Both the position numbers and the translations under genes were made by a program. Below the pieces are notes generated by a model. The model searched no databases. It was not told where the DNA came from and saw only the letters and a list, made by a program, of their open reading frames with translations. A stretch of 64,000 bases of DNA from Escherichia coli. GTDB lineage: Bacteria > Pseudomonadota > Gammaproteobacteria > Enterobacterales > Enterobacteriaceae. The first letter of the stretch is position 1; the number at the start of each line of letters is the position of its first letter. The stretch lies in the NCBI RefSeq assembly GCF_013315695.1, contig NZ_CP054353.1, one strand, 5' to 3'. Below, one piece after another: positions 38,770-64,000 of this stretch.

Positions 38770-38789
38770 GCAACCTACAAACGTTGCTG

Positions 38790-38928: not shown

Positions 38929-38952
38929 CTCTGCTCCTGATGAGGGCGCTAA

Positions 38953-40677
<1,725 letters not shown>

Positions 40678-40693
40678 ATCAGAGGCGAAAAAG

Positions 40694-41518
40694 TCAGCGC
40701 ATTCCACCGTACGCCAGCGTCACTTCCTTCGCCGCTTTAATCACCATCGCGCCAAACTCGGTCACGCGGTCATCGGTAATACGTGAAATCGGTCCGGAAA
40801 TAGAAATTGCGGCAAACGGTTCACGGTGCTCATCGAAAATACACGCTGCAAGGCAACGTAGCCCCAGCGCATGTTCCTCATCGTCAAATGAATAACCCCG
40901 TTTGCGCGTTTGGGCGAGATCTTCTTTTAAATGCACAGGAGACACTAGCGTTGCGTGGGTATAGGCATGTAACCCTTTGCGGTGCAGCAGCTTCGTCACC
41001 TGTTCTTCGCTCAGTTGGGCTAAAAAGGCTTTACCCGCACCGGAAGCGTGCATAGGTAATTTACCGCCGATAGGCGCGGACATTCGCATCAGGTGGGTAC
41101 ACTGTACTTGGTCGATAATAATCGCTTCATGATCGCTTTGATCAAGCACCGCCATATTGACCGTTTCGCCAGACTCTTCCATTAGATTGCGCAGGATAGG
41201 GTGAACAATTGCTAACAAATTACGGCTCTGGAGAAAGCTGCTGCCGACCATAAAGGCATGTGCGCCGATTGCCCAGTGTCCCAGTTCGCCAACCTGACGC
41301 ACGAAACCCTGCTGTTGCATCGTGGTTAGCAGGCGGTGGGTCGTGGAATTGGGTAACCCGGCTTGTTGCGCCAGCTCCGTGAGTGCCACACTGCCATTGG
41401 ATTCGGCAATCCACTCCAGTAATTTCAGGCCACGCGTTAAAGACTGAACCTGTCCAGTCGCTGGTGCGGTGGCAACGGCGGGTTTTCTGCCGCGTTTCGC
41501 GGGAATGGGTGCGACCAT
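40694..41518 (-). CDS. iclR: Glyoxylate bypass repressor IclR
   Basis: 274 aa MVAPIPAKRGRKPAVATAPATGQVQSLTRGLKLLEWIAESNGSVALTELAQQAGLPNSTTHRLL; stop is 16 nt from aceK stop. Confidence 0.95.
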   Translation of the reverse strand: MVAPIPAKRGRKPAVATAPATGQVQSLTRGLKLLEWIAESNGSVALTELAQQAGLPNSTTHRLLTTMQQQGFVRQVGELGHWAIGAHAFMVGSSFLQSRNLLAIVHPILRNLMEESGETVNMAVLDQSDHEAIIIDQVQCTHLMRMSAPIGGKLPMHASGAGKAFLAQLSEEQVTKLLHRKGLHAYTHATLVSPVHLKEDLAQTRKRGYSFDDEEHALGLRCLAACIFDEHREPFAAISISGPISRITDDRVTEFGAMVIKAAKEVTLAYGGMR

Positions 41519-41717
41519 GACAGTCTCCTTTTTCTGTATCGTGGAAATCATTTTCATTTTTATTGTTAGCTAATGCAATAGTTGCTGAACTGATCCGATG
41601 AGTTAATGTTGAACAAATCTCATGTTGCGTGGTGGTCGCTTTTACCACAGATGCGTTTATGCCAGTATGGTTTGTTGAATTTTTATTAAATCTGGGTTGA
41701 GCGTGTCGGGAGCAAGT

Positions 41718-45401
<3,684 letters not shown>

Positions 45402-45620
45402 TTCACAAATCTGTCACTTTTCCTTACAACAAACAGGGCGCTCAATGAGTGCCCTGTCTCTTTATTAATATGAAACACTTATACTGGAATCAGGCTGGAA
45501 TAATCTTAGCCGGAAAAACGAAGGTCAAAAGGCACAGTAAAGATGCCAGTCAGCGTGTTTCCGGTCCTTTGGTCATTCAATTGCTTCAGGAACATATAAC
45601 GATAAGGAGAACCTGAACTC

Positions 45621-47252
45621 GTGTTAACGCTGCTTCACCTGCTTTCTGCCGTCGCCCTGCTGGTCTGGGGGACTCATATTGTTCGAACCGGCGTAATGCG
45701 CGTCTTCGGCGCGCGTCTGCGTACTGTTCTTAGCCGAAGCGTCGAAAAGAAGCCGCTCGCCTTTTGCGCGGGGATAGGCGTTACCGCACTGGTGCAGAGC
45801 AGTAATGCCACCACCATGCTGGTGACCTCGTTTGTCGCTCAGGATCTGGTAGCCCTCGCACCGGCTCTGGTGATTGTGCTGGGTGCAGATGTCGGGACGG
45901 CGCTAATGGCGCGTATTCTCACCTTCGATTTATCCTGGCTGTCACCGTTACTTATTTTTATCGGCGTGATTTTTTTCCTCGGACGCAAACAGTCACGCGC
46001 CGGGCAACTGGGCCGCGTCGGTATTGGTCTTGGGCTGATTTTGCTGGCGCTGGAGTTGATTGTGCAGGCCGTAACGCCGATCACCCAGGCAAACGGCGTT
46101 CAGGTGATCTTTGCCTCGCTGACCGGCGATATTCTGCTGGATGCGCTGATTGGCGCGATGTTCGCCATTATCAGCTACTCCAGCCTTGCTGCTGTACTGC
46201 TGACCGCGACTCTGACCGCCGCAGGCATTATCTCCTTCCCCGTGGCGCTCTGTCTGGTGATTGGTGCTAACCTCGGTTCCGGTCTGCTGGCGATGCTCAA
46301 CAACAGTGCCGCCAATGCCGCAGCCCGCCGTGTCGCGCTGGGTAGCCTGCTGTTTAAGCTGGTGGGTAGCCTGATTATCCTGCCGTTTGTCCATTTGCTG
46401 GCAGAGACAATGGGGAAGTTGCCACTGCCAAAAGCGGAACTGGTGATCTATTTCCACGTCTTCTACAACCTTGTACGCTGCCTGGTCATGCTGCCATTTG
46501 TTGACCCGATGGCACGGTTTTGCAAAACGATTATTCGCGATGAACCGGAACTGGATACCCAGCTACGACCCAAACATCTGGATGTCAGCGCGCTGGATAC
46601 GCCCACGCTTGCTCTGGCGAACGCCGCGCGCGAAACCCTGCGCATTGGCGACGCCATGGAACAGATGATGGAAGGGTTGAATAAAGTGATGCACGGCGAG
46701 CCACGGCAGGAGAAAGAGCTGCGTAAGCTGGCAGATGATATCAACGTTCTCTACACCGCCATTAAGCTGTATCTGGCGCGAATGCCAAAAGAGGAACTGG
46801 CAGAAGAAGAGTCGCGCCGCTGGGCGGAGATCATCGAAATGTCGCTCAACCTTGAACAGGCCTCCGATATCGTCGAGCGCATGGGCAGCGAAATTGCCGA
46901 CAAATCGCTGGCTGCAAGGCGAGCATTTTCGCTTGATGGTTTGAAGGAACTGGATGCGCTCTATGAGCAATTGCTCAGTAATTTAAAACTGGCAATGTCG
47001 GTTTTCTTCTCTGGCGATGTTACCACCGCCCGTCGTTTGCGCCGTAGCAAACATCGTTTTCGCATTCTTAATCGCCGCTATTCCCATGCCCACGTCGATC
47101 GCCTGCATCAGCAAAACGTGCAAAGCATTGAAACCAGTTCGCTACATTTAGGCTTACTGGGAGATATGCAGCGTCTGAACTCGCTGTTTTGTTCGGTGGC
47201 TTACAGTGTGCTGGAACAGCCGGATGAAGACGAAGGACGGGACGAGTATTAA
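45621..47252 (+). CDS. yjbB: Na/Pi cotransporter family membrane protein YjbB
   Basis: 543 aa polytopic N-terminal half plus PhoU-like C-terminal half; position after metH. Confidence 0.9.
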   Translation: MLTLLHLLSAVALLVWGTHIVRTGVMRVFGARLRTVLSRSVEKKPLAFCAGIGVTALVQSSNATTMLVTSFVAQDLVALAPALVIVLGADVGTALMARILTFDLSWLSPLLIFIGVIFFLGRKQSRAGQLGRVGIGLGLILLALELIVQAVTPITQANGVQVIFASLTGDILLDALIGAMFAIISYSSLAAVLLTATLTAAGIISFPVALCLVIGANLGSGLLAMLNNSAANAAARRVALGSLLFKLVGSLIILPFVHLLAETMGKLPLPKAELVIYFHVFYNLVRCLVMLPFVDPMARFCKTIIRDEPELDTQLRPKHLDVSALDTPTLALANAARETLRIGDAMEQMMEGLNKVMHGEPRQEKELRKLADDINVLYTAIKLYLARMPKEELAEEESRRWAEIIEMSLNLEQASDIVERMGSEIADKSLAARRAFSLDGLKELDALYEQLLSNLKLAMSVFFSGDVTTARRLRRSKHRFRILNRRYSHAHVDRLHQQNVQSIETSSLHLGLLGDMQRLNSLFCSVAYSVLEQPDEDEGRDEY

Positions 47253-47261
47253 TACCGTGAC

Positions 47262-47337
47262 CCTGTAGGCCTGATAAGACGCGTAAAGCGTCGCATCAGG
47301 CACGATGAACAAGATGCCGGATCATGCATCCGGCAAT
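47262..47337. repeat. REP element pair
   Basis: CTGTAGGCCTGATAAGACGCGTAAAGCGTCGCATCAGGCA and GATGCCGGATCATGCATCCGGCAA between yjbB and pepE. Confidence 0.8.
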
Positions 47338-47341
47338 TCAT

Positions 47342-48031
47342 TTAAAAACGGTGACCCGCTTCCAGCGGAACCGCTTCTTCACCAGCCTTAAATACATAAG
47401 TGGTGTTCGGGCCACCCAGCGTAGCGTGACCTTTACTTACTGTGATCCAGTTACCTTCCGGCAGACCAATAATCGTCAGTTCTGGCGCGACGACCAGCAG
47501 TTCGCGAATACGCTGCTCACGCGTTTCACCTTTATGGCCTTCCGGCAGCGCGTTGGTGAAGTGCGGGTTGATTTGCAACGGGAACAGATTCAGCGCATCG
47601 AAACCTTGCGGATCGACAATCGGCATATCGTTGGTGGTACGAATGGTTGGGCAAGCAAGGTTAGCGCCTGCGCTCCAGCCAATATACAGCGCGCCACGTT
47701 TCACCACGTCAGTAATTGGTGCCAGCAGCCCGCGCTCGCGGCACTGTTTCAGCAACTGGAAAGTATTACCGCCGCCGACAATCACGATCTCAGCATTTTC
47801 AATCGCGGCAACGGGATCGACAACGCTATGAATACCGGTGACAGAAACACCCAGCGGAGCGAGAACCGCAGCCGTTTTCGCTGTGTAATCATCCCAGGTC
47901 TGCGTTACGCCAGCGAAAGGAATAAATACCGCTGAGCGGCGACCCTGCAACTGTTCAGCAATCAGCGGCAGCGCGTGTTCCAGCCAGGCTTTACCCGGCA
48001 GCGTCGAGTTACTCAATAAAAGCAGTTCCAT
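47342..48031 (-). CDS. pepE: Dipeptidase E (alpha-aspartyl dipeptidase)
   Basis: 229 aa [57 protein letters not shown]. Confidence 0.95.
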
Positions 48032-48153
48032 TACTTCTCCGGTTAGTAAGAAATCACGGGAGCCATGCTACCACTGTGATTTTAACCGCTTACTGACATG
48101 GCTCACGATGTTGCGCATTGCTTCTGGCGTGGCAAACAAGGCGCTGATGTTTC

Positions 48154-48966
48154 TTATCCTTCTCGTGCAAATTGTGCCGCCTCAGCAATCAGTTGCGCAT
48201 CAGGCCGTACGCCGGTATACATTGCGAACTGCTCGACGGCCTGTAAAGCAATCACCTCCGCACCGCTAATCGTCTGCTTATCAAGCCGTTGCGCCAGGCG
48301 AATGAGCGGCGTTTCCGGCGGCAAGGCCACGACATCAAAAACGACGCTTGCCGTTGAGACCATCGCTTCGCTGAAGGCCAGCTCATGGCTCTCTTTACCG
48401 CCGCTCATGCCAACGGGCGTCACGTTGACCAGAATGTCGCAGGCGATGCCTTCCGGCTGCGGTTGCCACTGAAACCCATACTGCTTCGCCAGCGCCGGGC
48501 CGCTCTCGCGGTTGCGGGCGGCAATGATAACATCCGTAAACCCCGCGTCGCGAAAGGCGGCAATCACCGCTTTGCCCATGCCGCCACTGCCGCGAATCAT
48601 CACTCGCGTGGTGGTATTGAGCTGGTGGTGGGTAATCAGGCTTTTCACCGCGATATAGTCGGTGTTAAACCCGGTCAGCCTGCCGTCGTCATTCACGATG
48701 GTATTCACGGAATCAATGACCTTCGCCGACGGATCGATCGCGTCGAGAAAAGGCATGCAGCTTTCTTTAAACGGCATCGACACAGCGCAACCGCGAATAC
48801 CCAACGCGCGAACCCCTTTCACCGCCGCTGCAATATCCTGGGTGGTGAACGCTTTATAGATGAAATTCAGCCCCAGCTTTTCATAAAGATAATTGTGAAA
48901 ACGCGTGCCGAAGTTACCGGGGCGGCCGGCCAGCGACATGCAGAGTTGAGTATCGCGATTAATCAT
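48154..48966 (-). CDS. AroE/YdiB-family (shikimate dehydrogenase-like) NAD(P) oxidoreductase, substrate unknown
   Basis: 271 aa from ATG(rc) 48964-48966: MINRDTQLCMSLAGRPGNFGTRFHNYLYEKLGLNFIYKAF...NTDYIA...IRGSGGMGKAV; N-terminal substrate domain, NTD motif and Gly-rich Rossmann loop laid out as in AroE; start overlaps the sorE stop (ATGATTAA). Confidence 0.75.
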   Translation of the reverse strand: MINRDTQLCMSLAGRPGNFGTRFHNYLYEKLGLNFIYKAFTTQDIAAAVKGVRALGIRGCAVSMPFKESCMPFLDAIDPSAKVIDSVNTIVNDDGRLTGFNTDYIAVKSLITHHQLNTTTRVMIRGSGGMGKAVIAAFRDAGFTDVIIAARNRESGPALAKQYGFQWQPQPEGIACDILVNVTPVGMSGGKESHELAFSEAMVSTASVVFDVVALPPETPLIRLAQRLDKQTISGAEVIALQAVEQFAMYTGVRPDAQLIAEAAQFAREG

Positions 48967-50188
48967 GGGAAATCGCCTCTGCATGGGCGAGCAGGTACTG
49001 CTCCGCCTCGCCAGACCAGACTCCCTGATGACGCGCCAGAATCGCCGCCAGTTCTTCATCCTGAATCTGCGTGAGTGATGTCAGCGGCAGATATTTCCCG
49101 GTATACACCAGTTTTTTCCCGCCGCCGACGGCAGGCAATTCAAGCGTGGTTTCGCCCGCGGCATTCAGCCCAAGAATATGTGTTACCACTTTTGCGGCCT
49201 GCACTTTTTTCTCTTCAATCAATTTGACCGCTGCGCGCATGTCGTCGGTATTGCCGCCTGACGTGCCTACGTAGTGGGTAAATGCATAATGCACATCGTA
49301 GAAATTAATTGGCGCGCTGAAGTGCTTATCCTGCGGTCCGGCGAAGAAATTCAGGCAACCATCTGTCGCCAGCAAGGAAGAGGCGAGAGTCACCAGTCCT
49401 TCATTAGGCACAAAGACGAAAATATCATCGAAGCCGTGACCGCCACTCAGCGCCATTAACGTATCAAATGCTGCATCGGTGGCATTGAGATAATGAATCA
49501 GTGTTTGCGGTTCTGATGGATAGTGCTTGCGCGCATAACTCAATTTGTCGTTGTCGGTATCGGTAATGACGAGCAGCGAAGGGTTAACGGGTCCATGTAG
49601 CGCATAATCAATCGCCAACAGTCCCATTGGTCCGGTGCCGCCGAGGATCAGCGTGCGCCCTTGCGGGCGAATCCCCATCGTGTGGTTATAACTACCTTCC
49701 TGAAGATGATAGTTGGCGTTGAACGCGCCAATCACGCAGGAAAGCGGTTCAACCAGCGAGCCTTCAAAATAGGTTTCGCCGTCGTATGCCAGCAGGCAAT
49801 CTTGTTCCATGACCTCGTTGGGAATAACCACATGCGTCGCTTCGCCGCCTACCCACGGGAAGGAGTAGCCGGGGCAGTCCGGGCGGTCGGGGAGTTGCAG
49901 GTTGGCCTGAATCACATAACGCTGACCCGGCTGGAATTTGTGCTGCCACTTTTTACCCACGGCCAGAATATCGCCGCAAAATTCGTGGCCGATGATGATG
50001 GGATTGGTCGCCACATCGTCGGGTACTTTTTTATGGTTTTCCCCCAGATTGGCCTCTTTCCAGGAAGAGAGGCACAGGCTGTCAGTGACCACCGTCGCGA
50101 GGATTTCATCCTCCTGCATTTCAGGAAGGTCAAAGGTTTCCAGACGCAGGTCACGTTTGCCATAAAGACGCAGAGCTGTTGTTTTCAT
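48959..50188 (-). CDS. sorE: Sorbose-1-phosphate reductase (Zn-dependent MDR dehydrogenase)
   Basis: About 409 aa (MKTTALRLYGKRDLRLETFDL...), zinc-ADH fold motifs GHEFCGDI and LILGGTGPMG; last gene of the sor-type PTS cluster; start ambiguous (track ORF 48959..50200). Confidence 0.75.
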   Translation of the reverse strand: MKTTALRLYGKRDLRLETFDLPEMQEDEILATVVTDSLCLSSWKEANLGENHKKVPDDVATNPIIIGHEFCGDILAVGKKWQHKFQPGQRYVIQANLQLPDRPDCPGYSFPWVGGEATHVVIPNEVMEQDCLLAYDGETYFEGSLVEPLSCVIGAFNANYHLQEGSYNHTMGIRPQGRTLILGGTGPMGLLAIDYALHGPVNPSLLVITDTDNDKLSYARKHYPSEPQTLIHYLNATDAAFDTLMALSGGHGFDDIFVFVPNEGLVTLASSLLATDGCLNFFAGPQDKHFSAPINFYDVHYAFTHYVGTSGGNTDDMRAAVKLIEEKKVQAAKVVTHILGLNAAGETTLELPAVGGGKKLVYTGKYLPLTSLTQIQDEELAAILARHQGVWSGEAEQYLLAHAEAISHD

Positions 50189-50239
50189 AAACCACCTCAT
50201 GTTGAGCGATGACCCCGGCAGTCGTGCCGGGGCGAAGAA

Positions 50240-51064
50240 TCAGGACAGGAAGCCCAGCGCATTACCGATAATCCCTAAACCAAACAGGGCGAAAATCAGC
50301 CATACCGGGTTAATTTTTTTGTTGAGCAGACGTACCATCAGCAGCGTCAAACCGAGCGCCAGCAATCCAGGGCAAAGCTGGTCGAGAATGTTCTGTACGG
50401 TCATAGTGACGGTGGCACCATCGGCGGCAGGCGTTTGTGAAACCACTAACGGCACGTTGATCGATGTCCATTTGGTCACCAGTACGCCCATTACAAACAG
50501 CCCGAGAATCGACGCGCCTTCGGTCAGTTTTTGCAGCAAATTACCGCCCATATCGCTGACGATATTCACCCCTTTACGAAAGCCCAGTTGCAGCCCATAC
50601 CATTTCATTGCCAGACGTACTGCATTGAAAATAAAGAAGAACAGCAGGGGGCCGAGAATGTTGCCCGAAAGTGCCAGAGATGCGCCGAGCGCGGCGGTAA
50701 TCGGGCGCAGCGTTCCCCAGACCAGTGGATCGCCAACACCTGCCAACGGTCCCATCAGGCCGACTTTGATGCCGTTAATGGTACCGTCATCAATTTCCGC
50801 GCCGTTGGCTCGCGCCTCTTCCATGGCGGCAGTGACGCCGATGACCGGGCCACATACGGCTGGCGTGGTATTGAAGAACACCAGGTGTCGCCTGAGCGCC
50901 GCAACTTGATCCTCTTTTAATGGGTAAAGTCGTTTGATGGCGGGGATCATGTCGTAGCAAAAACCCAGCCCGTGAATACGTTCAAAGTTAAAGGATGCCT
51001 GTTGCAGGTTGGAGCGCAGAAACATGCTCACCAGATCGCTGCGTGTAATTTTTCTCTGTTCCAT
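50240..51064 (-). CDS. sorM: PTS sorbose (mannose-family) EIID component
   Basis: About 274 aa (MEQRKITRSDLVSMFLRSNLQQASFNFERIHGLGFCY), characteristic EIID-Man N-terminus; alternative start 51094. Confidence 0.8.
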   Translation of the reverse strand: MEQRKITRSDLVSMFLRSNLQQASFNFERIHGLGFCYDMIPAIKRLYPLKEDQVAALRRHLVFFNTTPAVCGPVIGVTAAMEEARANGAEIDDGTINGIKVGLMGPLAGVGDPLVWGTLRPITAALGASLALSGNILGPLLFFFIFNAVRLAMKWYGLQLGFRKGVNIVSDMGGNLLQKLTEGASILGLFVMGVLVTKWTSINVPLVVSQTPAADGATVTMTVQNILDQLCPGLLALGLTLLMVRLLNKKINPVWLIFALFGLGIIGNALGFLS

Positions 51065-51074
51065 GATGGCTCCG

Positions 51075-51872
51075 TTAATCATCAAGTTGGTCAAGGGCGG
51101 TGATAGTGGTGGTCTGGGGATGTGGTTCAGCTTTACGCCACTGTGGATTTAACTGGATGTAGAGCAGGGCCATGATCACGCCGACGCCACCGAACGCCAG
51201 CAGACTGAGATCGAGGTAGCCACCTGCGAGGAAACCGAGGAAAAAGAAAGGCATCAAATATTTCACGCCCATCATGCGAAGCACCATGGCGTAACCGACC
51301 ACCACGATAAAACCGCCAGCAATCTGCAGCCCACGGGTCACAAATTCGGGAATGGCGCTCAGCATATTGCTCACCATATCAGCGCTGACGAACAGCGAGA
51401 CAATCAGTGCCGGAATAGCAACGCGCAGTGCCTGCACGCCAAGCGCGGAGACATGCAGAATATCGAGAGTGCGAAACCGTGCTTCTTCCGCTGCTTTATC
51501 CGCCGCGTGCTGGAACACTACGGTGATGGTACGGGCAAACACCGTCAGCACCTGGCCTGCCGCAGCCACAGGCAACGCGATGGCGATTCCGGTGGCGATG
51601 CTTTGCTGACCAACGATAACCAGAATGGCGGAGATTATGCTGGCGAGTGCAGAATCCGGAGATTGCGCCGCGCCGACGTTCATCCAGCCGAGAGCTATCA
51701 ATTCCAGCGTACCACCGAGCATAATTCCGGTTTTTAAATCACCGAGAATTAAACCAATCACCGTACAGGCAATTAACGGACGATGAGTCTGAAATTCATC
51801 CAGCACGCTGCCCATTCCGGCAATACAGGAAAAAAGAAATATAGCAATAATTTGTAGGGTACTTATTTCCAT
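51075..51872 (-). CDS. sorA: PTS sorbose EIIC component
   Basis: 265 aa polytopic membrane protein MEISTLQIIAIFLFSCIAGMGSVLDEFQTHRPLIACTVIGLILGDLKTGIMLGGTLELIALGW (EIIC-Man family). Confidence 0.8.
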   Translation of the reverse strand: MEISTLQIIAIFLFSCIAGMGSVLDEFQTHRPLIACTVIGLILGDLKTGIMLGGTLELIALGWMNVGAAQSPDSALASIISAILVIVGQQSIATGIAIALPVAAAGQVLTVFARTITVVFQHAADKAAEEARFRTLDILHVSALGVQALRVAIPALIVSLFVSADMVSNMLSAIPEFVTRGLQIAGGFIVVVGYAMVLRMMGVKYLMPFFFLGFLAGGYLDLSLLAFGGVGVIMALLYIQLNPQWRKAEPHPQTTTITALDQLDD

Positions 51873-51937
51873 GATTTGTCACCTTTTAAGTGTCGTCATC
51901 CCTGCCTGTTAAAGCATATGTACACAGGCGCTATTAT

Positions 51938-52432
51938 TTAATTTGCGATTAACTGTTCGTTTATTTTGTCGATAATATTGATTGAGGGATCTGACGCTAC
52001 GACGCGTAAATCCAGTATGACGCCAAGATTATTTAACTCATGAAATGCGTTAATATCATCGTCATCTAATGAAACTGCTTTGGTTAACTGTTTCTTACCA
52101 GGACGCCAGGCCATACCGCCAATATTCAGGGTACCTATTTTTACCCCCTGGCGAACCATTGCTAAGGCATCTTGTGGGCGAGTGAAAAGATAAAAAACGG
52201 TTTCGTCCTGATATTGCGGGTTGTGATAAACCGCGACGGCTTTTTCAATATTGACCACGTTAACCTTCATTCCCGGTGGCGCAGCCTGACGCAATAATGT
52301 CCGGCGAACTTCATCGTTATAAACTTCGTCATTGCAGATAATAATGCGTTGGGCGTTAGCCACTTTAGACCAGACGGTAGTGACCTGGCCGTGGATCAGG
52401 CGGTCATCAATGCGGGCGAGCGTAATGTTCAT
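51938..52432 (-). CDS. sorB: PTS sorbose EIIB component
   Basis: 164 aa MNITLARIDDRLIHGQVTTVWSK, EIIB-Man phosphohistidine motif. Confidence 0.82.
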   Translation of the reverse strand: MNITLARIDDRLIHGQVTTVWSKVANAQRIIICNDEVYNDEVRRTLLRQAAPPGMKVNVVNIEKAVAVYHNPQYQDETVFYLFTRPQDALAMVRQGVKIGTLNIGGMAWRPGKKQLTKAVSLDDDDINAFHELNNLGVILDLRVVASDPSINIIDKINEQLIAN

Positions 52433-52839
52433 CAGAAATCCTCCTCCGCTGTTGCCACCTGTCTCCAGACGACGCAGATTTGCTTTGCGATTTGCGTCAG
52501 GTGTTCACACAGTTCATCAATATTCATGCTGTCCTGGTTATCAACCAGTTCGAGCGCCAGCGGCAGAGAAAGGCCGCTGATTACCCGCAGACGAGGATTG
52601 CGCATCGCAAGCATCGCTGCCGCATTCCACGGGCTGCCGCACTGTAAATCCACGGCAATCAGCCACTCATCTTGATTGTGAATGCTTGCTAACTTTTCCA
52701 GCTTTGCTACGATGTCTCCGGCGTTCTCGCCGGGCACAAATTCAACGGCCTCGACCCTGGCATCGCCGTACACCATCTGAACCGATTCCAGCATGGCGCA
52801 AGCTAATTTGCCATGGGCGCAAAAAATGGCATTGACCAT
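52432..52839 (-). CDS. sorF: PTS sorbose EIIA component
   Basis: 135 aa MVNAIFCAHGKLACAMLESVQMVYGD, EIIA-Man with conserved His near N-terminus. Confidence 0.82.
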   Translation of the reverse strand: MVNAIFCAHGKLACAMLESVQMVYGDARVEAVEFVPGENAGDIVAKLEKLASIHNQDEWLIAVDLQCGSPWNAAAMLAMRNPRLRVISGLSLPLALELVDNQDSMNIDELCEHLTQIAKQICVVWRQVATAEEDF

Positions 52840-52848
52840 AAAGCCTCC

Positions 52849-53655
52849 TTAGCCGCGCGTTTTGCCGCCCGCAATGTTAGTGGTTACTCCGGTGATATAG
52901 CTGGCGCGTTCAGACAGCAGATAACAAACAAAATCAGCCACTTCTGCTAATCTTCCGGCGCGCCCAATAGGAATGGCGTTTTTGGTATAGCCTTCACGCA
53001 GCTGCTCGACGGTGATATTGCGCGTCCACGCCAGCGCTTCTTCATATTCCGGCGTGCGCAGTCCTGTTTTTTCCAGAATCCCCGGCGCGATACCGACCAC
53101 ACGGATACCGTGCTTACCCAGTTCTTTCGACCAGGAGCGAGTGAAGCTATTGAGCGCAGCTTTAGTGGCGGCGTAGCAGCTCTGGCCTTCTGAGCCTTCC
53201 AGCCCACTTTCTGAGGAAACATTCACAATCACGCCATCGTGTTGTTTGACCATCTGTCGCGCCACCGCCTGCGACATCAGAAAAACGCCTTTCTGGTTGA
53301 TATTGACCATTTTTTCGAATGCAGCTTCGTTGAGTTCATACTGCCCGGCAGGCGCTTTCTCATCGACCAGCAGACGCGGGAAATTGACCCCGGCGTTATT
53401 GACCAGACCGTCGATGCGACCAAAACGCTGGATAATTTCTGCTACCGTATGATTTACCTCTTTGGCGCTGGAAATATCGGTCGGCCAAAACTGATAGCCT
53501 TTATGACCTTCATATTGTCCATCGCCACCGTGAATATCGACCATCTGTACATTCGCGCCTTGTGCTAATAATTCATCCACAATCGCCAGACCAATGCCGG
53601 ATGCGCCACCGGTGACAATAATGATTTTATCCTGCAAATTTAACCACGTTTGCAT
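52849..53655 (-). CDS. sorD: Short-chain dehydrogenase (D-glucitol-6-phosphate dehydrogenase type)
   Basis: 268 aa MQTWLNLQDKIIIVTGGASGIGLAIV... (TGxxxGIG), SDR catalytic YAATK. Confidence 0.8.
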   Translation of the reverse strand: MQTWLNLQDKIIIVTGGASGIGLAIVDELLAQGANVQMVDIHGGDGQYEGHKGYQFWPTDISSAKEVNHTVAEIIQRFGRIDGLVNNAGVNFPRLLVDEKAPAGQYELNEAAFEKMVNINQKGVFLMSQAVARQMVKQHDGVIVNVSSESGLEGSEGQSCYAATKAALNSFTRSWSKELGKHGIRVVGIAPGILEKTGLRTPEYEEALAWTRNITVEQLREGYTKNAIPIGRAGRLAEVADFVCYLLSERASYITGVTTNIAGGKTRG

Positions 53656-53724
53656 AACAGACTCCTGATTTTAGATAATAGGGACCCGCCGTAATTTTTA
53701 TTACGGTAAACATCGGGAAGATTT

Positions 53725-54672
53725 TTATTTCAGTAATAGTTCAGCTGTGCTGCTATTCGTTACCAGACAATTAATATATTTTCCACGCAGTGCACCAACA
53801 ATTCCGCTGTATTTTTCTTCACTCATGGCAATGCCAATGGAATATCGTGCCTGCTTTAATTTATTCATTTCGATAGAGAGTGTTTTTTCGCTCATATTCG
53901 TTTCAACCATTGCGCCGTGAATATCAAAAAAGCGCGAGCAAATATCGCCAGCAACCTGGCGGGCATTCAGGTCGTCACTCTCTTCACCACCATAAAACGC
54001 ATGCCAGTTAGCGCCGTCGCGAATGGCCGGTGAGCCAATTCCCACCAGGGCGACATCCAGATTATCCCAGTAGGCAGAGATGGTTTTAAAGTGCTGAGAC
54101 TGCATGATCCCATTACGAATTAATGGGTTATCCAGCAGAGCCGGAAAATCCGCGAGATGCGATTCCCCTTTCAACTTCGCTGCCGCGCTGTAGGTTAATG
54201 TGTTTACATGATAGCGGCTTTCGAGTTTACCGGACGGTCCGCCAATAATTGGTACGCAGATTAACTGCCGCGATTGCCCCGCCTGCGGCAAGTTTTCAAC
54301 CAGTGCGCTCACCGCGCGGCCCCAGGAAAAACCAACAATATCGCCAGGTTCCAGCAAGCGATCCAGCAGTTGCGCGCCGTGTAACCCCATCATCGCCAGT
54401 TGAGTCTCTTCATCCTCATCATTTCCCGACACCACCACAACGTCTTTCAGGCCAAACTTTTGCTTCAGTTGCTGCTCCAGCCAGAGATTTTCGTTGTAGT
54501 CATAGTTGATGGCGATGGTGACAATTCCCTGATCGCGGCCTCGTTTAAGCAAGCGGCTGATGGTGGTGCGGTAAATACCCAGTTCGCGCGCGATTTGCGC
54601 CTGCGTCATATCCTGTTCGTAATAGAGTTGGGCAATCTTCACAATCAAACGGATATCGTCACTGTTTTCCAT
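53725..54672 (-). CDS. sorC: SorC-family transcriptional regulator of the sorbose operon
   Basis: 315 aa from ATG(rc) 54670-54672 (MENSDDIRLIVKIAQLYYEQDMTQAQIARELGIYRTTISRLLKRGRDQGIV), N-terminal HTH plus sugar-phosphate binding domain; first gene of the cluster. Confidence 0.8.
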   Translation of the reverse strand: MENSDDIRLIVKIAQLYYEQDMTQAQIARELGIYRTTISRLLKRGRDQGIVTIAINYDYNENLWLEQQLKQKFGLKDVVVVSGNDEDEETQLAMMGLHGAQLLDRLLEPGDIVGFSWGRAVSALVENLPQAGQSRQLICVPIIGGPSGKLESRYHVNTLTYSAAAKLKGESHLADFPALLDNPLIRNGIMQSQHFKTISAYWDNLDVALVGIGSPAIRDGANWHAFYGGEESDDLNARQVAGDICSRFFDIHGAMVETNMSEKTLSIEMNKLKQARYSIGIAMSEEKYSGIVGALRGKYINCLVTNSSTAELLLK

Positions 54673-55019
54673 TGCCGCCTCCTGGTTCTGCACATTTGTG
54701 CAAATACGCTTTCTCACCGCTTGATCTGATATAACCCCATCATGATGGCCTTTCAAAGCGATTTTTCACTCTTTGCATGGGGGGAAATAGCGCTTTCTCT
54801 TGCACATTTGTTTCTCTGCGTAGTAGTCATCAGCACAGGTGTGCAGCGATTCGTAATATGTTGATTATCCTTATTTTGCCAGGCAAATTTGCATCGTACT
54901 TCCGGAGACACTTTTGTGATAAAAGGCGTGGCAGATCACATTTAATTTCGACGTTGCCGCATAACCCTGTTTTTCCCCGCTAAGAGGTACGGTATATTCC
55001 GCGTTTTACAGGAGAATTT

Positions 55020-55892
55020 ATGCTGCCCGACTCATCAGTCCGTTTAAATAAATACATCAGCGAAAGCGGAATTTGCTCACGCCGCGAAGCGGATCGCTAT
55101 ATCGAGCAAGGCAATGTGTTCCTTAATGGCAAGCGAGCCACCATTGGCGATCAGGTGAAACCCGGCGACGTTGTGAAAGTAAACGGTCAGTTGATTGAGC
55201 CTCGGGAAGCCGAAGATTTGGTACTTATCGCCCTGAACAAGCCCGTCGGTATTGTCAGCACCACCGAAGATGGCGAGCGCGATAACATTGTCGATTTCGT
55301 TAACCACAGCAAACGCGTGTTCCCGATTGGCCGCCTGGATAAAGACTCCCAGGGGCTGATTTTCCTCACCAATCACGGCGATCTGGTGAATAAGATCCTC
55401 CGTGCGGGTAACGATCATGAGAAAGAGTATTTGGTGACGGTTGATAAACCGATTACCGATGAATTTATTCGTGGTATGGGGGCGGGAGTGCCGATCCTCG
55501 GGACGGTGACGAAAAAGTGCAAAGTCAAAAAAGAAGCGCCGTTTGTCTTCCGCATTACCCTGGTGCAGGGGCTGAACCGTCAGATCCGTCGCATGTGCGA
55601 GCACTTTGGTTACGAAGTGAAAAAGCTGGAACGTACGCGCATTATGAACGTCAGTTTAAGCGGCATTCCGCTGGGTGAGTGGCGCGATTTAACCGACGAT
55701 GAGTTAATCGACCTCTTTAAGCTCATCGAAAATTCCTCTTCCGAGGCAAAACCTAAAGCGAAGGCCAAACCGAAAACGGTAGGCATCAAACGTCCAGTCG
55801 TCAAGATGGAAAAAACGGCGGAAAAAGGCGGTCGCCCGGCGTCCAACGGTAAGCGTTTTACCTCGCCGGGGCGAAAAAAGAAGGGACGTTAA
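55020..55892 (+). CDS. rluF: 23S rRNA pseudouridine synthase RluF
   Basis: 290 aa; S4 domain N-terminus and pseudouridine synthase motif [21 protein letters not shown]; Lys-rich tail. Confidence 0.94.
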
Positions 55893-56165
55893 TCAGCGCC
55901 TGCCGCGCGTCGACGTATTTGCTGACCAGCTAAATGACGCCTCAGGATCCGGTTTATAAGCCTGCTTTTTCTTCAATTGGCGGGCTTTTTTCGCTTCAGC
56001 CTCACGCTCGACCATTAATTTATCGATGTACTCTTTCTTAATGCTGTTGGTTTCGGAGTTGGTCAGTACGCGACCATGCGCAATCCGCGCCCGATCCAGC
56101 AATGTTTTAAGTTCACGCTGCTCGCGTTCAGTCATCTCTTTTTGGGTAATACGGGGGAGTGCCAT
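55893..56165 (-). CDS. yjbD: DUF3811 family protein YjbD
   Basis: 90 aa MALPRITQKEMTEREQRELKTLLDRARIAHGRVLTNSETNSIKKEYIDKLMVEREAEAKKARQLKKK. Confidence 0.85.
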   Translation of the reverse strand: MALPRITQKEMTEREQRELKTLLDRARIAHGRVLTNSETNSIKKEYIDKLMVEREAEAKKARQLKKKQAYKPDPEASFSWSANTSTRGRR

Positions 56166-56378
56166 GATGGTGCCCTCAGTGAGCCAGAGAGTTCAGTGTA
56201 CGGGAATTCGTTTGCGAGCAGAACTGATAATATTCCTTTGTTCCCTTCTTAAATATCTATCTTTCTTGATAATTGACGATAAATACAGATAAAAATTTAG
56301 CAAAAAGTTTTCCCCCTACAAACAACAGTAATTCATTAACTCTTTATTTTTCATTTGGTTAATGGTTTTTCTCAATTC

Positions 56379-56394
56379 TGGCACGCTTCTCGCA
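56379..56394 (+). promoter_or_regulatory. Putative sigma54 (-24/-12) promoter upstream of the SPFH gene
   Basis: TGGCACGCTTCTCGCA: matches TGGCACG-N4-TTGCW with one mismatch (C for T at -14); GG and GC separated by 10 nt; about 300 nt upstream of the SPFH start. Confidence 0.45.
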
Positions 56395-56693
56395 ATAACA
56401 CTTTTGCGTTGATACTGAATTTCAAAGGGGATTAAACCCCGTCGGCACACCAGGAACGGCCAGGCTGTTTTCCGGGCGTGTTCCGTCAGCCTTTGACGCT
56501 AATTACGGGTTCGATTCCCGAATTCATTCCTGAAATGAATACTGGTTGTAACTTATTAAATAAAAAATGGGGGATTGCGCAGTCAGCGATCCCCGATAAC
56601 GTCGCCGATAAAGACGCCGGGATACAGGCAAAAGGGAATTCCCCTGTCTCTTCGTGTCTGCTTCCGCGACGGCTGTTAAGCAAGGAATAGATA

Positions 56694-57821
56694 ATGATTA
56701 AGAAAATAAGCGTAAGAAAAGATCAGCTGGCATTACTCTCCAGAAATGGCGATTACTACAAAGTGCTGCATGCAGGCGAGCATCTTTTACCCTGGTTAAA
56801 TACGCCAGAAGTCTTGCTGATTACGCTCGATGGCAGCGAAGTTCCCGACGTGCTGGCGGATTATTTGCGCCGCTTTCAGCCTGATTGGGTGGAAAGATAT
56901 TGCGTGGTGGCCGACTTGTCGGAGACTGAAGCCGGGGCGTTGTATATGGACGGTATTTTGCTGGAGATCCTGCCGCCATCAACGCGTCGTTTGTACTGGC
57001 GTGTAGAGGATGATTTGACGCTGGTGCGGATGAATACGCAGCAAGTCCAGGTTCAAACGGAGGTGATGAATGCGGTATTGCAGCCACGGCGCAAAGGGAC
57101 TGTTAAAGGCCGCGATGCGATACTGACGGTGCAGGTTCCGGCCTGGCACGTAGGTGTACTGAAAATCGATGGTGAAACGCAGGCGCTGTTACCGCCGGGG
57201 CTGACTGCGTACTGGAAAATTAACCATCTGGTTGAAGCTGAAGTGGTTGACACCCGCTTGCAGGTACTGGAAGTCAGTGGGCAAGAAATCTTAACGAAAG
57301 ATAAGGTCAATCTGCGGATTAATCTCGCCGCTAACTAGCGCTACAGCGACGTGTTATTGGCATTTAGTCAGTTAACGAAGCCGATTGATCATTTGTATCG
57401 GGAATTGCAATTTGCACTGCGTGAAGCGGTAGGTACGCGTACGCTGGATGAGTTGCTGGAAGATAAACAAGTCATTGATGACGTTGTCAGCGAACAGGTG
57501 AAATCGCGTATGTTGCCATTTGGTATGGAGATTGCTTCATTAGGGGTGAAAGATATCGTCCTGCCTGGCGATATGAAAAATATCCTTGCGCAGCTGGTTG
57601 AGGCGGAGAAATCCGCGCAGGCCAATGTGATTCGTCGACGTGAAGAAACGGCAGCGACGCGTTCGTTACTCAATACCGCTAAAGTCATGGAAAACAACCC
57701 GGTGGCGTTACGCTTAAAAGAACTGGAAACGCTGGAGAGAGTGGCTGAGCGGATCGATAACATCTCTGTATTTGGTGGTCTGGATCAGGTTCTGCACGGG
57801 TTAGTGAATATCAAAGGATGA
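56694..57821 (+). pseudogene. SPFH/band-7 domain protein, interrupted by in-frame TAG at 57339-57341
   Basis: Track ORFs 56694..57338 and 57351..57821 are in the same frame, separated only by the TAG; the joined product (...TKDKVNLRINLAAN*RYSDVLLAFSQ...LLEDKQVIDDVVSEQVKSRMLPFGMEIASLGVKDIVLPGDMKNILAQLVEAEKSAQANVIRRREE) has a stomatin/prohibitin-type SPFH domain spanning the stop. Confidence 0.7.
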
Positions 57822-57933
57822 GTCAAATGCCATTAAATGGAGTCAGTGCTGCGATGCGCGAACGGGTATCGCAGCAGTTAAAAGAAATAGAACGTCGCTA
57901 TGGCGTGAAAGTGCTGTACGCCTGCGAATCAGG

Positions 57934-57945
57934 CAGCCGCGGCTG
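57934..57945. repeat. IS4 target-site duplication, left copy
   Basis: CAGCCGCGGCTG immediately 5' of the IS4 terminus TAATGCC. Confidence 0.85.
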
Positions 57946-59371
57946 TAATGCCAGTCAGTTAAGCAACTGACTGGCTCTTTTTCGGGGCTGTGGGGTATTT
58001 CCAGGGCCTCTCCTTTACCACTCTCGGGAAGGCCCTTTCCCTTCTTGTCGGTAATTTCACAAGTTGTCCCATACTTGCAAGATCGCGCATCAGCTCCGGT
58101 ATACGTCCCGGTGAAGCGCCCTGCAATGTCATCAGCATTCTCATCACCATTCCGCATGATTCTGAGAAACTCAGTTGATTCGGCCAGTAACCTTTCAGAT
58201 GTTCCGCCATTTTAATCATCTGATATCTCACCAGATTATAAGCCAGTAAGACACCCCACAGCTCTTGCTCCACAAGCTCCGGTTTTTTACTTCTCAGCGT
58301 CAGCCTGCTCAGTTGCATCGTCTGTTTTATCTCCCTGTATCCCAGTTCGATTTCCCAGCGATGACTGTACAGATCCGCCATTTCTCCTCCGGGGAAGCGC
58401 ATGGCGTCCGTCATCGACGTCAGCAGATGGCAGACTTTTCCTTTGCGCGTCACGGTCAGCAGGCGGGCTGTCACTTCATTTCCCAGTCCCGGCCACTTTT
58501 TTCGTGCCTGCGGGCTGGTTTTCAGCTTCACCAGATGATCGCCTTTACCCAGTTTTCTGATCTCTTCATATTGCGCTCCCTTTCTGAGAGGTATCATCCA
58601 GTGGCGGTGTTCTCCCGCCAGGCTCCAGGCATTTAACAGTCCCAGTGAGTAATAACCTTTATCCATTAACGTCAGAGTGTTATCGCCGGTTTGTTCTATA
58701 AGTTGCTCAGCAAGCTCATTTTCGCTGTTCTTCATCGTGCCGAAGGCTGCAGCCGTCAGCAGATGGCTGGTCAGTTCCATCTGGCAGACCATTTTGACCT
58801 GCGGGTAGAGCGCCGGGTTCCCGGCATGTGTCTGGCGGGGGAAGGCTGCATCGTTCTCTGGTGTATCCGGTGTGCGCCAGAACACACCATCGATGGCCAG
58901 CAGGGTCAGGCCGCACCAGTGCGGATGCGGCGTGGCGTTATGCCAGAGCTGCGCTGTTTTCGTGAACACGCGGCGGACAGCCTCACTTCCCAGGCGCTGG
59001 CGGGCCTGAATAACGGCACTGGGGGCAACGAAGGGGCGATTGCCCGGCAGCATGATGTCCAGGCGATTCACAATCTGGTGAAGAGGTTCTTTACGCTCAA
59101 GCGCCATGCCAACAATACACCAGACCATCATTTCGAGGGGAAGACGGCGCTTGCGTAGCGTTACAGTACCTGATTCGGCAAGGCAACGAGAGATGAGTTC
59201 GGGGTCGAGGTAATCCCCCAGAGAAGTCAGTGGGTTACGCAGAGAATCGTAACGGGATACCAGATCAAGAGCCTGTCCAATGTGCATAAAAAAATCCGGA
59301 AACAAGTGAGCGTTTCCGGATTCTTACACAGCCACTGGATCGGTCAACTGATCCTTAACTGATCGGCATTA
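57946..59371 (-). mobile_element. IS4 insertion sequence (complete, 1426 bp)
   Basis: Terminal inverted repeats TAATGCCAGTCAGTTAAG... and ...CTTAACTGATCGGCATTA; single 442 aa DDE transposase; flanked by a 12 bp direct repeat. Confidence 0.92.
57959..59287 (-). CDS. insG: IS4 transposase
   Basis: 442 aa [63 protein letters not shown]... (IS4 family DDE transposase). Confidence 0.92.
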
Positions 59372-59383
59372 CAGCCGCGGCTG
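59372..59383. repeat. IS4 target-site duplication, right copy
   Basis: CAGCCGCGGCTG immediately 3' of the IS4 terminus. Confidence 0.85.
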
Positions 59384-60170
59384 GGGATTTGCCTCGCCCG
59401 ATAGCGACTACGATGTACGGTTTTTGTATGTCCATCCGCTGGAATGGTATCTGCGTGTAGAGTCACCGCGCGATGTTATCGAGCTGCCCATCGACGACGA
59501 ATTAGATGTTTCCGGTTGGGAGTGGCGTAAGGCGCTGGGATTATTGAAAGGCGCGAATCCGACGCTGATAGAATGGCTGGATTCTCCGGTGGTCTATCAA
59601 CAAGATGAAGAAACGATAACGGCGCTTAAGGCAATGGTCCCAATGTGGTTTTCTTCGTTGCGTGCACGCTGGCATTACTATTCGATGGCGCAGAAAAACT
59701 TCCGCGGCTATTTGCAGGGCGATGAAGTTCGACTGAAAAAATACTTTTACGTGCTGCGCCCGCTGCTGGCCGTGCGCTGGGTCGAAGCGGGTAAAGGCGT
59801 GCCGCCAATGCGCTTTGCTGAGTTACTGGCAGGAAGCGAGCTTGATGCGCCGTTACGCGAAGAGATTGACGAACTGCTGGAGCGTAAACAGCGAGCGGGG
59901 GAGGCGGAATATGGTCCGCGCCGTCCTTTGTTACATGCGTTTATTCGCGCGGAGCTGGCGCGTGGGGAAATTCCACCGATTTTACCGGACAGTCGAGATG
60001 GAGATGTTCGGGAGCTAGATAATTTGCTGTATCAAACGGTAATGCGCCGGGCATAAAGCCCGGCGTGATTTATTGCTGGTATTGCCAACTGCTGACTAAA
60101 GCGTACAAGTGATTTGGTGATGCTGCCAACTTACTGATTTAGTGTATGATGGTGTTTTTGAGGTGCTCCA

Positions 60171-60446
60171 GTGGCTTCTGTTTCTATCAGCTGTCCCTCC
60201 TGTTCAGCTACTGACGGGGTGGTGCGTAACGGCAAAAGCACCGCCGGACATCAGCGCTATCTCTGCTCTCACTGCCGTAAAACATGGCAACTGCAGTTCA
60301 CTTACACCGCTTCTCAACCCGGTACGCACCAGAAAATCATTGATATGGCCATGAATGGCGTTGGATGCCGGGCAACAGCCCGCATTATGGGCGTTGGCCT
60401 CAACACGATTTTACGTCACTTAAAAAACTCAGGCCGCAGTCGGTAA
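60171..60446 (+). CDS. insA: IS1 InsA
   Basis: 91 aa [43 protein letters not shown]... zinc-finger/HTH protein of IS1. Confidence 0.93.
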
Positions 60447-60868
60447 CCTCGCGCATACAGCCGGGCAGTGACGTCATCGTCTGCGCGGAAATGGACGAAC
60501 AGTGGGGCTATGTCGGGGCTAAATCGCGCCAGCGCTGGCTGTTTTACGCGTATGACAGGCTCCGGAAGACGGTTGTTGCGCACGTATTCGGTGAACGCAC
60601 TATGGCGACGCTGGGGCGTCTTATGAGCCTGCTGTCACCCTTTGACGTGGTGATATGGATGACGGATGGCTGGCCGCTGTATGAATCCCGCCTGAAGGGA
60701 AAGCTGCACGTAATCAGCAAGCGATATACGCAGCGAATTGAGCGGCATAACCTGAATCTGAGGCAGCACCTGGCACGGCTGGGACGGAAGTCGCTGTCGT
60801 TCTCAAAATCGGTGGAGCTGCATGACAAAGTCATCGGGCATTATCTGAACATAAAACACTATCAATAA
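60365..60868 (+). CDS. insB: IS1 InsB reading frame (expressed as InsAB' by -1 frameshift)
   Basis: -1 frame relative to insA; ...[78 protein letters not shown] slippery run in the insA/insB overlap. Confidence 0.9.
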
Positions 60869-60921
60869 GTTGGAGTCATTACCAATAGCGTCGTGGGTCG
60901 CTATTCACCTCTACTGATCGT

Positions 60922-62271
60922 TTACTCAAACAAATTAAAATGCAGCTTCTGCACCACCTGCTCGGCATCTTCGCCGGGCACCAGGAAGCACAGGTTATGG
61001 CTGGATGCGCCGTAACAAATCATGCGAATGTTGAACGGTTCCAGTACGCCGAATACCTCTTTGCCAACGCCGCAGGCTTTTGACAGGTCATTGCCAATCA
61101 ACGCGACCAGCGCCAGCCCCTCTTCCACTTCCACCCGGCACAGTGCGGAAAGCTCCATCAGCAGGGATTGCGTCAGCAAGGTATCGCCAGTGGAGGTTGA
61201 ACCGGTGGTATCAAGGGTTAATGCCACGCTCACTTCTGACGTGGTGATTAAGTCTACCGAAATATTATGCCGCGCGAGGATGCCGAAAACTTCCGCGAGG
61301 AAACCGCGAGAATGCAGCATATTCAGGCTGTGCAAAGTGAGCAGGGTCTGATTGCGACGAAGCGCCAGCGCGCGGAACAGCGGCGGATTTTCAGTTTTAT
61401 TGCACACCAGCGTACCACCTGCGCGTGGGTCTTTGCTGGAGCCGACAAAGACCGGGATATCGCTGCGTACTGCGGGTAGCAACGTTGCCGGATGCAGTAC
61501 TTTTGCACCAAAAGTTGCCATCTCTGCCGCTTCGGCAAACGCGATTTCATCAATGCGTTTTGCTGCGGAAACCACGCGTGGATCGGTGGTGTAGATGCCC
61601 GGGACGTCGGTCCAGATATCAACACGAGATGCGTGTAAAGCCTCCGCCAGCAAGGCTGCCGTATAATCGCTGCCTCCACGGCCAAGCGTCGTTGTACGAC
61701 CTTTATTTTCGCTACCGATAAATCCCTGGGTGATCACTAAGCCTTCATTGAGGCGTGGGAGCAGCTGCAGCGCGGTCAGTTCCGCCAGCGCGGCTACATC
61801 TGGCTCTGCACGACCAAATCGGTCGTTGGTACGCATCACTTTACGTACATCAAACCACTGTGCCTGAACATCGCGTTCGCGCAGGATTTCGACAAACAGC
61901 AGGGTCGACATCAGCTCGCCGTGGCTGACCAGTTCATCTGTCAGGGCCGGAGACGTTGCCAGCGCCGCCGCTTCTGCCAGAACAGTAATATTCTCCAGCA
62001 GACGTTCAATCTCTTCACGGATAACGTTCGGGTAACGCAGACGTTCCAGAATGGCAAACTGGATATTGCGGATTGCGTCGAGTTTTTCGAATCGCTCGCC
62101 AGGTTCCAGTCCTTCAGCTAAAGCGACCAGCAGATTAGTGATACCAGCAGAAGCCGAGAGGACAACTAAACGCACGTTGGCATCAGAAAGCACAATATCA
62201 GCGCTGCGGTTCATGGCGTCAAAATCAGCTACGCTGGTACCGCCAAATTTGGAGACAACAATTTCAGACAT
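60922..62271 (-). CDS. lysC: Lysine-sensitive aspartokinase III
   Basis: 449 aa MSEIVVSKFGGTSVADFDAMNRSADIVLSDANVRLVVLSASAGITNLLVALAEG...; C-terminal ACT domains. Confidence 0.96.
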   Translation of the reverse strand: MSEIVVSKFGGTSVADFDAMNRSADIVLSDANVRLVVLSASAGITNLLVALAEGLEPGERFEKLDAIRNIQFAILERLRYPNVIREEIERLLENITVLAEAAALATSPALTDELVSHGELMSTLLFVEILRERDVQAQWFDVRKVMRTNDRFGRAEPDVAALAELTALQLLPRLNEGLVITQGFIGSENKGRTTTLGRGGSDYTAALLAEALHASRVDIWTDVPGIYTTDPRVVSAAKRIDEIAFAEAAEMATFGAKVLHPATLLPAVRSDIPVFVGSSKDPRAGGTLVCNKTENPPLFRALALRRNQTLLTLHSLNMLHSRGFLAEVFGILARHNISVDLITTSEVSVALTLDTTGSTSTGDTLLTQSLLMELSALCRVEVEEGLALVALIGNDLSKACGVGKEVFGVLEPFNIRMICYGASSHNLCFLVPGEDAEQVVQKLHFNLFE

Positions 62272-62299
62272 AACTACCTCGTGTCAGGGGATCCATTTT

Positions 62300-62560
62300 C
62301 AGCCTTGGCACAAGGGAAGAGCGGAAGACGGGTGGGCGCAGAGCGATACTTCGCTACTATTTTCACCCAGAAGTGCTCCACCACTTGCGAAACGCCCGAC
62401 TGCGAACGCTTCTGGTGACAACCCAGGGGATTCAGCCCCTGTAGCCGATGATGAACGTGGCCAGCCGTTCAATCACCTCGGCGATGCACCCCCTCAGGTG
62501 TTATCACAGGACTGGCTCCTCCAACACCGTTACTTGGGCAACGCGCCTCTTCTGGCCTGC
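62300..62560 (-). promoter_or_regulatory. Lysine riboswitch (L box) in lysC leader
   Basis: Long structured leader upstream of lysC; reverse strand contains ...AGAGGCGCGTTGCCCAAG... and ...GGTGCATCGCCGAGGTGATTGAACGG..., consistent with L-box conserved segments; exact ends not determined. Confidence 0.6.
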
Positions 62561-62741
62561 GCTAGCGCAGGTAGTACATTTATAAATAAAGGGTGAGCGG
62601 GGCGGTTGTCAACGATGGGGTCATGCGGATTTTTCATCCACTCCTGGCGGTCAGTAGTTCAGCTAATAAATGCTTCACTGCGCTAAGGGTTTACACTCAA
62701 CATTACGCTAACGGCACTAAAACCATCACATTTTTCTGTGA

Positions 62742-64000
<1,259 letters not shown>

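Follow-up and report, generated by a model that had tools for sequence, protein, structure and literature searches.

Introduction

IS1-mediated adjacent deletions were reportedly described by Reif and Saedler in 1975, and the classical adjacent (replicative) deletion made by IS1 is said to be the subject of Turlan and Chandler, EMBO J 14:5410, of 1995 (as cited in PMC12428005). An intact IS1 at the joint, no target-site duplication and the loss of a block of neighbouring DNA characterise these events and also the Escherichia coli locus described here, where, unlike in the classical cases, the event, with its presumed earlier IS1 insertion, is reconstructed by comparative genomics. Among clinical isolates of E. 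coli, deletions of 11-66 kb immediately adjacent to IS1 have removed nfsB (Wan et al. 2023, PMC10569738). Species, element, approximate size and the position directly beside IS1 are shared with our locus, but in that study the authors had the progenitor, which already carried the IS1, and knew the selection (nitrofurantoin), whereas the DNA lost here is a phage-tail cargo with no known selection. In the long-term evolution experiment, 14 of 14 IS-associated deletions went back to an IS that was already in place and beside which the deletion then arose (PMC11708052). There, as here, the absence of a duplication is diagnostic of such 'IS-Del' events and the same alternative causes have to be considered, although the elements were IS150, IS5 and IS481 rather than IS1 and the steps could be ordered by time series. 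The target duplication of IS1 is usually 8 or 9 bp long (PMC12428005), and recombination between two IS copies is a standard cause of missing duplications (PMC11708052).

The DNA lost at our locus resembles a second group of described systems. R-syringacin of Pseudomonas syringae (PMC4542187) and BceTMilo of Burkholderia (PMC5411513) are R-type tailocin clusters that derive from Mu-like or BcepMu-like phages. We found no specific description in the literature of an E. coli tailocin at lysC, or of the cluster considered below.

Results and discussion

A complete IS1 without a target-site duplication lies beside lysC

The stretch of DNA that was analysed, hereafter the window, is 64 kb of E. coli chromosome with the order sorbose operon, rluF, yjbD, a small islet of accessory genes, lysC and pgi. 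It is 100% identical over the 2 kb tested to MSB1_4I (NZ_LR898874.1) and to NZ_OZ547117.1. The IS1 that closes the islet on the lysC side has the following features.

60116-60883, + strand: complete IS1 (IS1A-like), 768 bp, without target-site duplication (terminal matches, flank comparison)
60116-60138, + strand: IS1 left inverted repeat (IRL), GGTGATGCTGCCAACTTACTGAT (exact match, 0 mismatches)
60861-60883, - strand: IS1 right inverted repeat (IRR), GGTAATGACTCCAACTTATTGAT (exact match, 0 mismatches)
60171-60868, + strand: insA / insB' transposase frames (ORF list, sequence, RefSeq annotation)

An earlier note on this DNA had placed an IS1 at 60116-60883 and the stop codon of lysC 38 bp away, and these coordinates proved exact: the stop codon occupies 60922-60924 and the gap to the right end of IS1 runs from 60884 to 60921. 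The element is bounded by the 23-bp imperfect inverted repeats expected of an IS1 of about 768 bp, neither the insA ORF (60171-60446) nor insB' (60365-60868) is interrupted, and at 60420-60428 there is the A6C slippery site of the -1 frameshift that joins the two frames in IS1, TTAAAAAAC; the identical DNA of MSB1_4I carries the RefSeq label of an IS1A-family transposase with programmed frameshift. A search with the terminal repeats found a single IS1 copy in the 64-kb window. This copy is identical to one in the unrelated strain MS14386 and differs by 2-10 nt from other copies.

The 9-mers beside the element, AAGTGATTT on the left and AATAGCGTC on the right, are equal at 4/9 positions in register, and the longest word common to the two 20-nt flanks is 5 nt. 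The junctions as observed in the window read CTAAAGCGTACAAGTGATTTGGTGATGCTGCC (left) and GGAGTCATTACCAATAGCGTCGTGGG (right), with no 8-9 bp direct repeat, a feature that we treated as the footprint of a simple insertion and not as a property of IS1 itself. By way of control, perfect 9-bp duplications flank 4/4 IS1 insertions at other sites of the locus in other strains, and an IS4 located in the window 2 kb from the IS1 has a perfect 12-bp duplication. Because the four IS1 controls and the one IS4 control are all perfectly duplicated, the missing duplication is meaningful rather than noise, and the earlier description of an IS1 lacking its target duplication holds.

The IS1 flanks are separated by 15.7-17.6 kb in IS-free relatives

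The nearest IS-free relatives found were MS 21-1, AF14 (NZ_OZ546925.1) and OZ546911. MS 21-1 shows 8 differences in the 19,946 bp that correspond to window positions 38000-57945 (99.96% identity) and is 100% identical over the right flank (60884-63275); its lysC gene and its nucleotidyltransferase gene, the latter free of IS4, are identical to those of the window. AF14 is equally close, the two aligned close relatives having 6-8 SNPs per ~19-20 kb. Alignment places the IS1 flanks exactly 17,608 bp apart in both strains, the intervening segment being L010 20744-38351 in the locus record of MS 21-1 and L011 19745-37352 in that of AF14. In WP2-W18-ESBL-08 (locus L009), which is less closely related, 15,656 bp separate them, the difference between the two lengths being due to an ISEc53 element and a ClbS/DfsB-family gene in the close relatives. 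The earlier note had read the IS1 as the signature of an IS1-associated deletion and had proposed this alignment as the check; instead of contiguous flanks with a decayed duplication, the IS-free genomes contain a gap of 15,656-17,608 bp, which bears that reading out.

Two remnants frame the element.

60070-60115, - strand: 3' stub of the last gene of the deleted cluster, consisting of 14 codons, the stop codon and 1 nt (translation)
60884-60921, no strand: remnant of the lysC-mor spacer, 38 bp (100% identical to MS 21-1 from 60884 on)

Translation of the stub gives NHLYALVSSWQYQQ followed by the stop, which is the C-terminus of the full 151-aa protein WP_000047948.1 of MS 21-1, a phrog_1128-like moron by its PHROG match. 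The presence of a truncated 14-codon stub therefore indicates loss in the lineage of the window and not gain in the relatives. The two IS1 junctions occur together in 2/5,426 complete E. coli genomes, as compared with 197/5,426 for the core of the cluster, and the two genomes with the scar are nested in a clade of otherwise intact members. Since the lost segment has no match anywhere in the 64-kb window, and since neither scar genome belongs to the 10 in which the cluster core is found at >=99% identity, this DNA was deleted and not relocated. Together these comparisons support the view that the IS1 of the window is the scar of a 17.6-kb deletion beside lysC, and the absent target duplication was here a reliable pointer to a hidden deletion.

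The missing segment encodes an R-type tailocin-like cluster in relatives

RefSeq annotation together with Pfam and PHROG scans identifies the lost segment as a BcepMu-like cluster of contractile-tail and lysis genes that lacks head genes. Read from lysC, the gene order begins with a Mor-family late activator, a holin, a lytic transglycosylase and a small lipoprotein, continues with Gp37, tail sheath, tail tube, assembly chaperone and tape measure proteins, followed by gpU-like, gpX-like and gpD-like proteins and baseplate proteins V, W, J and I, and ends with a 546-aa tail fibre (an intact ORF), a DUF4376 / Caudo_TAP fibre-assembly protein and the 151-aa moron-type protein. The sheath protein is 71% identical to gp39 of BcepMu. 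The interval from the nucleotidyltransferase gene to lysC has no annotated capsid, portal, terminase, replication, parent-phage transposase or integrase gene, and its sole transposase belongs to the unrelated ISEc53. The suggestion of the earlier note that the islet had lost sequence and might once have held more genes can now be given a figure, with about 22 to 24 genes gone. The cluster core is always chromosomal in the genomes that hold it, which include IAI39 and CE10.

In both close relatives, the DNA between holin and mor contains ISEc53 (ISL3 family) and an orphan gene of the ClbS/DfsB family (L010 35897-37654; L011 34898-36655). Both are also present in AR_0013 (L005 2546-4303), and WP2-W18-ESBL-08 has neither. 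The ClbS/DfsB family is the one that serves in self-protection against colibactin.

The relatives thus carry the genes that define an R-type tailocin, namely a full contractile-tail module, a lysis cassette and a regulator, with no head genes. We regard the architecture as R-type tailocin-like, because it corresponds to that half of a BcepMu-like transposable phage which encodes tail and lysis functions, together with the late activator of the phage. The regulator, the lysis cassette, the complete contractile-tail module and the lack of head, packaging, replication and integration genes are all shared with R-syringacin (PMC4542187) and BceTMilo (PMC5411513); compared with these two systems, the E. 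coli cluster is a putative tailocin, and one that is gone from the window. Relative to its nearest sequenced relatives, the strain has shed a complete set of genes for a tailocin-like weapon and for lysis, and with it the orphan clbS-like gene; the locus is a clean natural case of an IS1-rich E. coli lineage shedding accessory DNA.

The remainder of the islet is decaying

Upstream of the IS1, the window retains the following islet genes, the second of which is split by an IS4.

56694-57821, + strand: slipin (SPFH/Band 7) pseudogene, first gene of the islet, W215* (annotation, domain scan, gene comparison)
57827-57945, + strand: nucleotidyltransferase gene, 5' part (the rejoined gene equals the MS 21-1 gene)
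57946-59371, - strand: IS4, 1426 bp, splitting the nucleotidyltransferase gene (annotation, alignment, duplication check)
59384-60056, + strand: RlaP-family nucleotidyltransferase gene, 3' part (annotation, domain scan, gene comparison)

The slipin nonsense codon results from a change of TGG to TAG at 57336-57338 and is common to MS 21-1 and AF14. The 12-bp duplication of IS4, CAGCCGCGGCTG, is found at 57934-57945 and 59372-59383, and removal of IS4 together with one copy of the duplication yields a nucleotidyltransferase gene identical to that of MS 21-1. As IS4 is absent from MS 21-1 and AF14, its insertion is recent. A terminator-like hairpin lies 3' of the nucleotidyltransferase gene, at 60043-60067. 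PADLOC returned no match for either the slipin or the nucleotidyltransferase. All genes of the islet are now inactive or lost in the window strain; with a nonsense mutation in the slipin gene, a nucleotidyltransferase gene split by IS4 and a lost cluster, the islet as a whole is in decay.

The deletion probably arose by IS1 insertion followed by adjacent deletion

The ancestral islet between yjbD and lysC would have consisted of the slipin gene, the RlaP-type nucleotidyltransferase gene and a tail and lysis cluster of ~16-18 kb, which, as in the nearest relatives, would also have contained ISEc53 and the clbS-like gene. We consider it probable that the deletion is recent and took place in two steps: an IS1 would first have inserted at one end of the present gap, and intramolecular replicative transposition from that IS1 would then have removed the DNA up to the second breakpoint, leaving one intact IS1 between two unrelated 9-mers. 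We favour this IS1-mediated adjacent deletion because it requires fewer events and because it has a precedent in the long-term evolution experiment. Such a deletion is a standard and already known kind of event, and as such adds nothing new to IS biology.

The final sequence would be exactly the same if two IS1 copies in the same orientation, one in the moron gene (with duplication AAGTGATTT) and the other in the lysC-mor hairpin (with duplication AATAGCGTC), had undergone RecA-mediated exchange, with excision of the 17.6 kb and retention of one hybrid IS1. This recombination is a serious if less likely alternative. The IS1 load of the lineage is very high, at >=39 places per chromosome in AF14, OZ546911, MSB1_4I and OZ547117, and MS 21-1 has 18 extra IS1 places, as against a median of ~10 per genome in the collection; with a lineage so rich in IS1, both adjacent deletion and recombination between IS1 copies are plausible. 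Independent IS1 insertions in the same cluster and spacer of other strains also speak for recombination. Against it, three events are needed, among them two insertions of IS1 in the same orientation within 17.6 kb, where adjacent deletion needs two, since none of the three intact close relatives (MS 21-1, AF14 and OZ546911) has an IS1 within the cluster. The IS1 of the window has no mosaic signal either, a test that says nothing if all IS1 copies are identical.

We derived the sequences of two hypothetical intermediates, one with IS1 at the left site, GGAGTCATTACCAAGTGATTTGGAGAATAGCG, and one with IS1 at the right site, CATGGTGAATAGCGTCGGTGATGCTGCC. Queries with the left and right junctions found no one-junction intermediate, and neither junction alone, in the 5,426 complete E. 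coli genomes, and exact junction patterns found none in metagenome contigs, which counts against adjacent deletion as well as against recombination. The AT-richness of the breakpoints (50-59% versus 43-52%) is not decisive as to which of the two sites was hit earlier. That the steps occurred in this order and were driven by the transposase is therefore what we infer, given that no one-junction intermediate was found and that recombination leads to the same final sequence.

A near-repeat marks both breakpoints

The breakpoints of the intact relatives carry a near-repeat with 11/12 matches, TGGAGAATAGCG and TGGTGAATAGCG, which adjacent deletion does not predict. In MS 21-1 the two copies are located at L010 20743-20754 and 38347-38358, corresponding to window positions 60115/60116 and 60883/60884. 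TGGAGAATAGCG starts at the last base retained on the left, and TGGTGAATAGCG lies across the right breakpoint, where it makes up the 5' arm of the hairpin. On the + strand, the motif GG[AT]GAATAGCG occurs in 40.7 kb at the two breakpoints only, and 0.24% of random breakpoint pairs have a match of >=10/11 within 12 bp. The registers of the near-repeat could be fitted to no order of ordinary insertion plus duplication. We also looked for motifs resembling an IS1 end beside IS1 targets and found none at four other local targets; targeting to IS1-end-like sequence therefore does not explain the near-repeat, which was spotted post hoc and may be due to chance.

The near-repeat is the one argument for a single-step origin, in which a deletion between the two copies captured an IS1 at the break, with no duplication and with the left joint at GGTG(A), a microhomology between the repeat and the left end of IS1. 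IS1 starts with GGTGA, and the window is equal to the hypothetical product of a deletion between the repeats with IS1 bases 5-768 placed after GGTG. One-step capture of an IS at breaks, without duplication, has been proposed for IS5 and IS481 (PMC11708052). We nevertheless think it improbable here. Copies of a 12-bp imperfect repeat at a distance of 17.6 kb lend themselves very poorly to slippage, the pattern was recognised after the fact, the model is itself unproven and is unreported for IS1, and it is superfluous where classical routes account for the sequence. If it were true, the idea of 'IS insertion into rearrangement breaks' (PMC11708052) would also apply to IS1, and to a clinical lineage in nature. 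The near-repeat and the tail cluster of the relatives are the sole points of this locus that are perhaps worth more work.

A simple IS1 insertion with a decayed duplication, or an ancestral IS1 state with later insertion of the cluster in the relatives, is extremely improbable, for decay has nothing in its favour but the 4/9 in-register identity of the flanks, which lie 15.7-17.6 kb apart in IS-free relatives, a cluster gene survives in the window as a truncated 3' end, and the surroundings differ from intact relatives by at most ~0.04%, far too little for mutation of 5/9 positions.

The deletion shortens a hairpin downstream of lysC

The gene on the right of the scar is intact.

60922-62271, - strand: lysC (lysine-sensitive aspartokinase 3), intact (identical to the MS 21-1 gene)

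The DNA upstream of lysC, including the annotated lysine riboswitch, is also 100% identical to MS 21-1. The coding sequence and the riboswitch are thus unchanged, and the effect is confined to a shortened downstream hairpin. Where the allele is intact, a hairpin with an 11-bp stem, GGTGAATAGCG / CGCTATTCACC, lies at the point on which lysC and mor converge, and the 66-nt fold has a free energy of -23.9 kcal/mol (z = -5.2). After truncation by IS1, at the cost of the four outermost pairs and of further pairing, the stem has 7 bp and the fold -12.7 kcal/mol (z = -1.35); what remains is the hairpin AATAGCG-N8-CGCTATT at 60884-60905. No U-tract follows the hairpin, whether intact or cut, and a terminator consensus scan found no site between the lysC stop codon and IS1, nor in the intact tail-cluster allele. 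The combination of GC-rich hairpin and U-tract that identifies a Rho-independent terminator is hence missing downstream of lysC in the window, and the K-12 allele has a canonical lysC terminator directly after the stop codon.

The earlier note had suggested that IS1 may have replaced or altered the native lysC terminator. Alteration stands in so far as the hairpin was cut from 11 to 7 bp and from -23.9 to -12.7 kcal/mol, but this hairpin never had a U-tract; replacement has to be given up, as the K-12-type terminator is a feature of another allele and IS1 has not displaced it. From the known polarity of IS1, we would place the putative end of the lysC transcript inside the untranslated antisense IS1.

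Forms of the yjbD-lysC spacer in E. coli

Comparison across E. coli distinguished several forms of the spacer between yjbD and lysC: a K-12 type with no islet and with the canonical lysC terminator, a form with slipin, nucleotidyltransferase and zeta-toxin genes, and a form with slipin and nucleotidyltransferase genes and the phage-tail cluster. The bases that adjoin the IS1 of the window match the tail-cluster form exactly. The zeta-toxin allele of strain KSC9 was considered as the state before IS1, but neither the 44 bp on the left of the element nor the 38 bp on its right aligned to it; the zeta-toxin gene is therefore not the DNA that was lost, and KSC9 represents a different allele. In KSC9, the tail cluster is replaced by a 308-aa zeta-toxin-family gene (locus L001 4720-5646), which lies immediately downstream of lysC and is followed by its own hairpin with a 12-bp stem; PADLOC gave a marginal match only for the zeta toxin (E=0.0008).

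Independent insertions of IS1, all with perfect 9-bp duplications, recur in the yjbD-lysC spacer and the islet of other strains, at L002 4335, L006 6001, L007 7480 and L008 6001. In TB354, an IS1 with the duplication CGGCCCGAA is located inside the hairpin of a K-12-type lysC terminator.
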